A stretch of DNA of 64,000 bases from Escherichia coli (GCF_036507355.1 NZ_AP027877.1), one strand, 5' to 3'; shown: positions 10,782 through 11,793, counted from the stretch's first letter. Made by a program: numbers and translations. Notes: generated from the letters alone by a model not told the origin.

Positions 10782-10797
10782 TTAAGATTATTCTGCT

Positions 10798-10839
10798 GGC
10801 GGGTCGATTTATTTACGTAAATCGGTCCGCTTTCTTTTT
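10798..10839 (+). terminator. candidate rho-independent terminator downstream of speA
   Basis: Imperfect hairpin GGCGGGTCGATTTATTTACGTAAATCGGTCCGC followed by TTTCTTTTT. Confidence 0.45.
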
Positions 10840-10926
10840 ATATATTCTTAAAAATAATTTAGCTGCTTTTCTTATTAAATAATCTCCCTACAATCGCTGC
10901 ATTAATTAAATGCAGAGGGAACGGTT

Positions 10927-11658
10927 ATGAAAAAATGGAAAGTACGTAGCGCGTTGGTGGCATTAATCGTGCTGCTGGCCGGTTGTTCCAGTAATGCGCA
11001 GTATAATAGCAGTGCATCGGGCAATGTCGGCACCGCCTGGGGTGGGGATGTGCACTCAACGGTTCAGGGCGTATCTGCTGAGCGAGCCTGGCGCGATCCG
11101 GCGGAGATGATCGTTATTAGTTATTCGACTAATGTTCCTTCCGGCTACGACCGCGTTTATAGCATTCGTATTAACGAACTGGAATATGCTATTCGCGATG
11201 GTAATTTTAATTCTCTACCTATTACGCGTGTTTATGATTCATCCAATAATGAACCACGCTATATTGTCCACGCCAGAGTCGGAATGAATTATCAATTATA
11301 TGTTCGTAATTACAGTCGTAACACCAACTACGAGATCGTTGCTACGGTTGATGGCTTGGATGTGCTGAACGGCAAGCAAGGTTCGCTGAATAACAACGGC
11401 TATATTGTGAATGCCGGAGATTCGTTAGCGATTAAAGGATTCCGCAAAGATAAACATACCGAAGCGGCTTTTCAGTTCGCCAACGTTGTTGATTCCTACG
11501 CAGCCAATTCGGCGCAAGGCGATGTGCGTAATACCGGGGTAATCGGCTTTGCCGCCTTTGAATTACAAGGCCCGGCGCAAAACGCGCTGCCACCGTGCTC
11601 TGGACAAGCCTTTCCGGCAGATAACAATGGCTATGCGCCGCCACCGTGTCGGAAATAG
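10927..11658 (+). CDS. predicted lipoprotein of unknown function (243 aa)
   Basis: ORF MKKWKVRSALVALIVLLAGCSSNAQ... with signal peptide and lipobox LAGC; Asn/Tyr/Ser-rich; own AT-rich upstream region; no family recognised; not at this position in K-12 by my recollection. Confidence 0.7.
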   Translation: MKKWKVRSALVALIVLLAGCSSNAQYNSSASGNVGTAWGGDVHSTVQGVSAERAWRDPAEMIVISYSTNVPSGYDRVYSIRINELEYAIRDGNFNSLPITRVYDSSNNEPRYIVHARVGMNYQLYVRNYSRNTNYEIVATVDGLDVLNGKQGSLNNNGYIVNAGDSLAIKGFRKDKHTEAAFQFANVVDSYAANSAQGDVRNTGVIGFAAFELQGPAQNALPPCSGQAFPADNNGYAPPPCRK

Positions 11659-11725
11659 CAACCTCGCTTGATGCCTCGCCCATTTAAGGCGATAATTAGC
11701 ACAAACTTGTGTTTCGCAAATCCAA

Positions 11726-11765
11726 CCCTTCCTCGTCGGGCCTAACGACGCGGAAGGGTTTTTTT
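11726..11765 (+). terminator. rho-independent terminator between the lipoprotein gene and speB
   Basis: 13-bp stem with one mismatch, CCCTTCCTCGTCG / CGACGCGGAAGGG, followed by TTTTTTT. Confidence 0.65.
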
Positions 11766-11793
11766 ATATCGACTTTGTAATAGGAGTCCATCC

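Follow-up and report, generated by a model that had tools for sequence, protein, structure and literature searches.

Lpp is an outer membrane lipoprotein of 58 residues that forms a trimeric coiled coil, carries Ser at position +2 after the lipidated Cys and is linked to murein through its C-terminal YRK. Smaller lipid-anchored or periplasmic all-beta proteins encoded by stand-alone genes include the MliC/PliC lysozyme inhibitors and the Rap1a/Tai-type immunity proteins of type VI secretion systems (T6SS). Here, we describe a lipoprotein that resembles each of these in some respects, encoded between speA and speB in a 64,000-nucleotide stretch of Escherichia coli DNA (NZ_AP027877.1, assembly GCF_036507355.1; hereafter the window, with positions counted from its first letter). 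We consider it likely that Escherichia and many other Enterobacteriaceae inherited this speA-speB spacer from their ancestor, and that the lipoprotein gene in it is monocistronic and was passed on vertically; its product would be a periplasmic protein anchored in the outer membrane.

Like Lpp, the speA-speB lipoprotein has Ser at position +2 and a short basic C-terminus ending in R-K (YRK in the homologues of Comamonadaceae). It differs from Lpp in its predicted beta-sandwich of about 185 residues, and a terminal Lys is found in only 84 of 240 relatives. With MliC/PliC and the Rap1a/Tai types it shares a lipid-anchored or periplasmic all-beta architecture and a stand-alone gene, and immunity-type genes are occasional neighbours of its family members. 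In contrast to those proteins, to which it has no sequence or structural match, it is about twice their size, is far more conserved across classes and has no known cognate toxin or enzyme.

The same gene is annotated in E. coli O157:H7 as WP_000758914.1, "lipoprotein", at the same position between speA and speB, and the orthologues of Salmonella, Klebsiella and Citrobacter are annotated as "hypothetical protein", "outer membrane lipoprotein" or "membrane protein". Judging from neighbouring tags in PMC2241611 and PMC2680622, its old locus tags would be ECs3813 (Sakai) and c3523 (CFT073). A literature search returned no paper mentioning WP_000758914.1 or either of these tags.

Distribution of the gene in E. 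coli and related genera

A survey of 5,426 complete E. coli genomes, conducted by megablast with the 1,012-bp spacer and a reciprocal search with the K-12 spacer, detected the full 1,012-bp spacer in 3,550 genomes and the 137-bp K-12-type spacer in 1,867. Genomes lacking the full spacer match its last 77 bp alone, a segment containing the second of two hairpins and the ribosome-binding site of speB, and the match in a BL21(DE3) derivative is limited to this same segment. The gene is present in O157:H7, sequence type 131 (ST131) and enterotoxigenic E. coli O6:H16, and the carriers of the K-12-type spacer include the K-12 derivatives J53 and DH5alpha. Across E. coli, the nucleotide identity of the lipoprotein gene is 97-99.6%, and clusters built at 90% contain 4,753 members in E. 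coli and 1,224 in Salmonella.

An earlier reading of the window from its sequence alone (the sequence-only reading) had described the gene as inserted between speA and speB, which it described as adjacent in K-12. The two genes are indeed adjacent there, and the K-12 spacer contains no open reading frame (ORF). That reading had also named occupancy of the same site in K-12 and in most E. coli as evidence that would count against an insertion; K-12 does not carry the ORF, but 3,550 of the 5,426 genomes do.

Outside E. coli, orthologues with 60-75% protein identity lie between speA and speB in Klebsiella, Citrobacter, Kluyvera, Phytobacter, Kosakonia, Intestinirhabdus and Entomohabitans. The same site is occupied in E. 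whittamii, in two cryptic-clade Escherichia and in one assembly labelled E. fergusonii, and an E. albertii contig that is cut upstream of the gene contains its 3' part followed by speB. In Salmonella (5886-10732 of two loci), the orthologue (74% protein identity) directly follows speA, but on its 3' side the place of speB is taken by a GntR regulator and a cluster of sugar-alcohol dehydrogenases (Mannitol_dh, ADH_zinc_N, Ldh_2). Taken together, at least ten genera, along with every non-coli Escherichia sampled, have the gene at this site.

The divergence of the gene parallels that of its flanks, with identities of 95.2% for the gene versus 95.7 and 93.5% for the flanks in the genome labelled E. 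fergusonii and of about 92% versus 94-96% in the cryptic clades. That the ORF is a conserved coding sequence on which purifying selection acts is shown by ratios of nonsynonymous to synonymous substitution rates (dN/dS) of 0.085 against O157, 0.063 against E. whittamii, 0.058 against Salmonella and 0.127 against Klebsiella. In addition, an AT bias relative to the flanking genes and an AT-rich upstream region, both proposed from the sequence by eye, were borne out by computed values, with the bias in the gene itself being mild: total GC and GC at third codon positions (GC3) are 48.9% and 48.0% in the lipoprotein gene, 54.6 and 62.1% in speA, and 56.0 and 64.8% in speB, and the 145-bp spacer 5' of the ORF is 32.4% GC. 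As the GC3 of the gene lies 12-23 points below that of speA in every genus, this bias is old and is not the mark of a recent import.

The K-12-type allele and the question of insertion

Alignment of the two E. coli alleles breaks at the speA stop codon (GAATAA versus GAGTAA) and resumes at position 11717, such that 60 bp in K-12 replace the 935 bp containing the speA terminator, the candidate promoter and the lipoprotein gene. These 60 bp keep the CTTGA(-35)-17 nt-GATAAT(-10) element and the CACAA..TTGTG palindrome of the segment that lies 3' of the gene in the filled allele. The K-12 segment is 66% identical to that of the filled E. coli allele and 57-69% identical to those of other genera (Citrobacter, Kluyvera, Klebsiella), and the same segment is 90% identical between filled E. 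coli and E. albertii. A K-12-specific sequence of 66 bp is single-copy, shows an identity of 99% or more in 1,791 of the 1,867 carrier genomes and is undetectable in genomes with the filled allele, even by blastn with a word size of 11. No second copy of it was found elsewhere in E. coli genomes.

Simple deletion was considered as the origin of the K-12 allele and rejected, for recombination between the 9-bp TTTTTATAT repeats found after both terminators, or between the CTTGATGC repeats, predicts junctions that do not match K-12. As the identity between its 60 bp and the corresponding segment of the speB promoter is no more than about 66%, the K-12 allele is better described as a derived replacement than as a simple deletion, and the homogeneity of the K-12-type allele marks it as the younger of the two. 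On the most economical reading of these alignments, the K-12 allele would go back to a single replacement event of fairly recent date, the product of which then spread through part of the E. coli population.

A separate alteration of the locus was observed in E. coli 23CRST038 (3248-4434 of its locus), in which the insertion sequence (IS) IS1 splits the lipoprotein gene. RefSeq lists the remainder as a partial pseudogene whose N-terminus is missing, and the upstream side adjoins actS, tRNA-Gly and ygeQ, a layout suggestive of a rearrangement that IS1 mediated through the lipoprotein gene.

The opposite polarity, with a lipoprotein cassette recently inserted by horizontal transfer and K-12 retaining the original state, would account for the absence of the gene from K-12 and B strains, for GC and GC3 values below those of the flanks and the AT-rich upstream region, for the terminators that bracket the gene and for the patchy occurrence of the family among Proteobacteria. 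It is contradicted by the occupancy of the same site across the genera and non-coli Escherichia sampled, by the parallel divergence of gene and flanks, by a low GC3 common to all orthologues and by the homogeneous and therefore younger K-12 allele. Moreover, the borders of the interval contain no direct repeats of the target-duplication type, integrase or IS, the gene is not on mobile plasmids (its plasmid matches are chromosome-sized or non-mobilizable records), and it is not in E. coli phages, as the phage matches are limited to remote relatives of the core domain in rhizobial jumbo phages. With the gene at the same position in most E. coli and in at least ten genera, and with no signature of a mobile element, the claim of an insertion does not stand, and a recent event of this kind is extremely improbable. 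Because most E. coli, other Escherichia and other genera have the gene at this site, the polarity is reversed, with the gene ancestral and the K-12 spacer derived.

Several observations nevertheless weigh against an ancestral spacer with its own lipoprotein transcription unit as outlined here. The GC3 deficit, together with the patchy distribution of the family, leaves room for an ancient acquisition by an enterobacterial ancestor. No donor was identified for the K-12-type 60 bp, and the comparison of the K-12 allele rests on about 56 bp, so that its genus-level divergence carries a wide error. The candidate promoter TTTTCT-16-TACAAT matches the consensus weakly (8/12) and did not pass a stricter promoter scan. 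Finally, it is a guess, held with low confidence, that the protein serves in binding or protection in the periplasm, anchored in the outer membrane, and is neither an enzyme nor a polyamine factor.

Layout and transcription of the locus

The features of the interval and its flanking genes are collected in Table 1. The sequence-only reading had placed terminator-like hairpins on both sides of the gene, and both are present and fold far better than chance. The upstream hairpin (10798-10831) with its T-run has a folding energy of -17.8 kcal/mol (z -4.8, with 0 of 200 shuffles as good) and was also flagged by a terminator scan, and its stem shows compensatory changes at 8 of 14 pairs in an alignment of 10 genera. 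The downstream hairpin (11724-11760) with T7, which begins 65 nt past the end of the lipoprotein gene, reaches -24.4 kcal/mol (z -4.65, again 0 of 200 shuffles), falls within the 77 bp common to K-12 and is nearly invariant in five genera. No Rfam family scored above threshold for the interval; the single sub-threshold match was on the terminator.

Table 1. Features of the speA-speB locus (positions in the window)
Feature	Position	Strand	Remarks
speA (biosynthetic arginine decarboxylase), 5' neighbour	8805..10781	+	ATG at 8805; RefSeq annotation of homologous loci
Polymorphic segment, 935 bp	10782..11716	+	60 bp in its place in K-12-type genomes
Intrinsic terminator of speA	10798..10841	+	15-bp stem, 4-nt loop, then TTTCTTTTT; absent in K-12
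Candidate sigma-70 promoter of lipoprotein gene	10867..10894	+	TTTTCT-16-TACAAT; consensus score 8/12
Inverted repeat CTGCATT-AATTA-AATGCAG	10897..10915	+	overlaps predicted +1, ends at Shine-Dalgarno sequence
Shine-Dalgarno sequence GAGGGA	10915..10920	+	6 nt 5' of ATG; AGGGA/GGGG motif kept in alignment
Lipoprotein coding sequence	10927..11658	+	243 aa; RefSeq WP_000758914-type "lipoprotein"
Signal peptide and lipobox LLAG/C (Cys20), +2 Ser	10927..10986	+	
speB-proximal promoter-like element TTGATG-17-GATAAT, then palindrome CACAA-AC-TTGTG	11668..11711	+	
Hairpin and T7	11724..11767	+	terminator of lipoprotein gene (of speA in K-12), part of speB leader
speB (agmatinase), 3' neighbour	11794..12714	+	

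Within the candidate promoter, T10889, A10890 and T10894 of the -10 element and TT10867-8 of the -35 element are invariant in the alignment of 10 genera. An imperfect inverted repeat had also been claimed upstream of the gene. A repeat is indeed present, with two perfect 7-bp arms around AATTA, but it is energetically unremarkable (fold z -1.96, with 10 of 200 shuffles as good) and is not kept outside Escherichia: it is identical in E. whittamii, and other genera have different short repeats abutting the Shine-Dalgarno sequence. A conserved operator or RNA hairpin at this site was therefore ruled out, given an ordinary fold energy and no conservation beyond Escherichia.

The proposal of an independent transcription unit is supported by the conserved speA terminator, the invariant TAnnnT of the putative -10 element, the Shine-Dalgarno sequence of its own and the downstream terminator, and from these sequence features the lipoprotein gene looks like its own transcription unit. 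Transcription would start at the weak sigma-70-type promoter, the speA terminator would insulate the gene from speA, and transcription would end at the hairpin and U7, about 30 nt 5' of the speB start.

The speB leader itself (11668-11793) is strikingly conserved, including CTTGA-17-GATAAT, the CACAA..TTGTG palindrome and the hairpin with U7. The inner stem, bulge and loop of this hairpin are invariant across Escherichia, Citrobacter, Kluyvera, Klebsiella and Entomohabitans, and two of its stem pairs covary. As a promoter-like element precedes a terminator-like hairpin just before the speB ribosome-binding site, the leader looks like a candidate attenuator or protein-binding leader, and would thus be more than a terminator only.

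Protein features, family and predicted fold

The 243-residue ORF described in the sequence-only reading, with its lipobox LAGC, was confirmed between speA and speB. Its protein begins MKKWKVRSALVALIVLLAGC in the ORF listing of the window, and the codon of Cys20 lies at 10984-10986. The N-terminus, MKKWKVRSALVALIVLLAG followed by Cys, comprises the regions MKKWKVR-SALVALIVL-LAG-C20 with Ser at +2, which is the arrangement of a lipoprotein signal peptide, the lipobox being defined here as [LVI][ASTVI][GAS]C preceded by an n-region of basic and an h-region of hydrophobic character. At least 90% of the aligned family sequences keep Cys20, and a lipobox-like motif is found in 225 of 247 full-length family members, with S, A, T, G or Q at +2 and never D. 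The +2 residue sets lipoprotein sorting, and Asp at this position confers inner-membrane retention in E. coli. With Ser at +2, outer-membrane sorting is therefore predicted.

A word-indexed search detected 286 relatives, and a scan with a profile hidden Markov model of the mature domain detected 4,026 representatives of 50%-identity clusters at E<=1e-3 (3,084 at E<=1e-10). Family members occur in gamma-, beta- and alpha-proteobacteria, across which conservation amounts to about 40% identity and 21 invariant columns, among them R53, Y66, Y122, N128, E136, D142-G-L-D145-V, Y159 and G171-F-R173. All proteins of the family end 0-6 residues past a YAPPP motif, with tails of CRK in Enterobacteriaceae and RYRK in Comamonadaceae; besides those ending in Lys, 59 of the 240 relatives end in Arg, and many members have Y, R, N, Q or D as their last residue. 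The enterobacterial proteins have a pair of C-terminal Cys residues, of which both are present in 76 proteins and the tail Cys alone in 2, a co-occurrence that fits a putative periplasmic disulfide between Cys224 and Cys241.

The sequence-only reading had recognised no family, and sequence searches agreed with it. Nothing scored above threshold in Pfam (best match DUF7537, 12.9 bits versus a cut-off of 31.7) or in NCBIfam (best match ActS, 15.5 versus 375), with both of these matches falling on the signal peptide. PADLOC gave no match for the E. coli lipoprotein, and neither phmmer nor a profile search gave a match in PDB. Ten distant or longer relatives likewise had nothing above threshold in Pfam. 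An AlphaFold2 model is all-beta, with a predicted local distance difference test (pLDDT) score of 80 overall and above 85 for residues 31-215.

Three relatives (P0249, P0250 and P0252) are circularly permuted, with the core beta domain first and a low-complexity linker after it. In these proteins, the "LGTxYGE..." (GTxWGE) segment that is N-terminal in E. coli stands directly before the FPAExRYAPPPP tail, and this permuted order implies that the GTxWGE segment and the Pro-rich tail pack together on the core. In addition, the core domain (query residues ~90-220, 33-36% identity) is found in hypothetical proteins of Sinorhizobium phage Phosso, Rhizobium phage RHph_I1_18 and Agrobacterium phage Atu_ph07 (PV764938, MN988519 and MF403008), and Foldseek returned matches to uncharacterised giant-virus proteins, the best with an E-value of 1.5e-6.

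Taken from the sequence, the path of the protein to the envelope would be as follows. The preprotein would be exported by Sec and lipidated on Cys20 by Lgt, LspA and Lnt, and the Lol system would sort it to the outer membrane, since its +2 residue is Ser. The mature protein would consist of a Ser/Asn-rich tether of about 12 residues and then the all-beta domain at about residues 31-215, which would carry the invariant polar and aromatic set R53, Y66, Y122, N128, E136, D142, D145, Y159 and R173. The conserved Pro-rich tail (AFPAD..YAPPP-C-R-K) would be pinned in Enterobacteriaceae by the Cys224-Cys241 disulfide.

Genomic context and candidate functions

Gene context was tried as a route to function and yielded no common partner: 118 neighbours from 30 non-enterobacterial loci match 138 Pfam families, none of them a shared partner, and no polyamine family is among the 25 most frequent Pfam families listed for these neighbours. 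The non-enterobacterial neighbours include his genes, thrS, recO, mltG, uppP, pgsA and sbcC. In Comamonadaceae, a family member resides inside the histidine operon, between hisD and hisC, as an odd accessory insertion. Seven loci of Acinetobacter and one of Psychrobacter have two tandem paralogues side by side (~4765-7600 of these loci), and the Acinetobacter pair lies between uppP/acyl-CoA thioesterase and sbcC. As the context outside Enterobacteriaceae is so heterogeneous, the speA/speB neighbourhood is probably incidental to the function of the lipoprotein. The sole recurrent theme of the context, and a weak one, is the occurrence of immunity-type genes beside family members in four unrelated lineages.

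This theme could be taken to mean that the lipoprotein confers immunity in the periplasm, or acts there as an inhibitor, against an envelope-targeting toxin or lytic enzyme, whether of host origin or an effector of the T6SS or colicin-like kind. In Variovorax, the family member is followed (6001-7881 of the locus) by a Rap1a-like protein, with an E-value of 1.8e-5 that falls short of the Pfam cut-off, and by a SUFU-like protein. The neighbours in the other lineages are UPF0167/CbrC in Burkholderia, a WapI-like protein in Propionivibrio and DUF4026/DUF2314 in Citrobacter sp. 18056. The tandem paralogues of Acinetobacter and Psychrobacter, the variable presence among E. coli strains and the small beta-sandwich architecture predicted for the lipoprotein would also suit such a role. 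However, no toxin gene or domain occurs among the 118 neighbours in the 30 inspected loci, the conservation across proteobacterial classes is unusually high for an immunity protein, and Enterobacteriaceae have one copy of the gene, in a syntenic position; the associations with neighbours, few and partly sub-threshold, could simply mark accessory-gene hotspots. We regard this role as unlikely.

A tie to polyamine metabolism, through the binding of agmatine or putrescine in the envelope or the modulation of SpeA or SpeB, is very improbable. PotD-type polyamine-binding sites use acidic and aromatic residues, and the invariant E136, D142, D145 and several Tyr/Trp would be residues of this kind; adjacency to speA is also kept across Enterobacteriaceae. 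Yet the gene is separated from speA by a conserved terminator and has candidate promoter elements of its own, it is never beside polyamine genes in the inspected loci outside Enterobacteriaceae, it stays with speA in Salmonella where speB is not adjacent, and a third of E. coli, K-12 included, make putrescine by the speA/speB pathway without it. Still less credence is given to an envelope tether in which the extreme C-terminus (..YAPPP-C/Y-R-K) is attached to peptidoglycan in the manner of Lpp. The termination of all proteins just past YAPPP, the frequency of Lys and Arg as last residues and the CRK and RYRK tails speak for such an attachment, whereas a C-terminal Lys is not family-wide, and the predicted fold is an all-beta sandwich and not a coiled coil. 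At the low confidence already stated for a binding or protective protein, the lipoprotein would act as a non-enzymatic periplasmic module, either binding a conserved envelope ligand or protecting against an envelope-acting enzyme or toxin; it would be dispensable in the laboratory, and polyamine synthesis would not need it.

Sequence adjoining the interval

The 5' third of speB (~11820-12120) has 15-22 differences per 200 bp (about 8-10%) versus both K-12 and O157:H7, and the remainder of speB, as well as speA, differs from the two strains by 0-3%. The divergent patch is probably a recombination patch. Just 3' of speB, an IS110-family insertion sequence (~12787-14066; transposase 12978-13958, Pfam DEDD_Tnp_IS110 and Transposase_20) interrupts a repetitive extragenic palindrome (REP)/bacterial interspersed mosaic element that is intact in K-12 (GCCTTATCCGACCT joined to ACGTTCGG...), and sub-threshold Rfam naRNA4/REP matches lie on both sides of the element. 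The insertion sequence resembles the REP-targeting IS621 type.

Implications

The gene is already annotated yet unstudied, an ordinary object as a lipoprotein but a member of an unusually large uncharacterised family. These findings will not greatly surprise a specialist in E. coli pan-genomics. The adjacency of speA and speB in K-12 is a derived state, and in most E. coli (O157:H7 and ST131 among them), as in most related genera, this site has in addition a terminator, a candidate promoter and a gene, so that speA/speB operon models built on K-12 are not directly transferable to pathogenic strains. The K-12 replacement, with 60 bp as diverged as those of a different genus, provides a small example of an allele imported into the core genome.

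The locus also exposes a blind spot, in that a strongly conserved and widespread lipoprotein family has no Pfam model, structural relative or literature, probably because the model strain K-12 lacks the gene. It is doubtful, although conceivable, that the E. coli protein belongs to a very large outer membrane lipoprotein family in which the acidic/aromatic site and the YAPPP-x-(C/Y)-R-K tail could perform a specific envelope function, be it an Lpp-like attachment or the neutralising of a widespread envelope enzyme or toxin. If this were true, a family of 4,026 clusters at 50% identity would never have been seen by K-12-based genetics.

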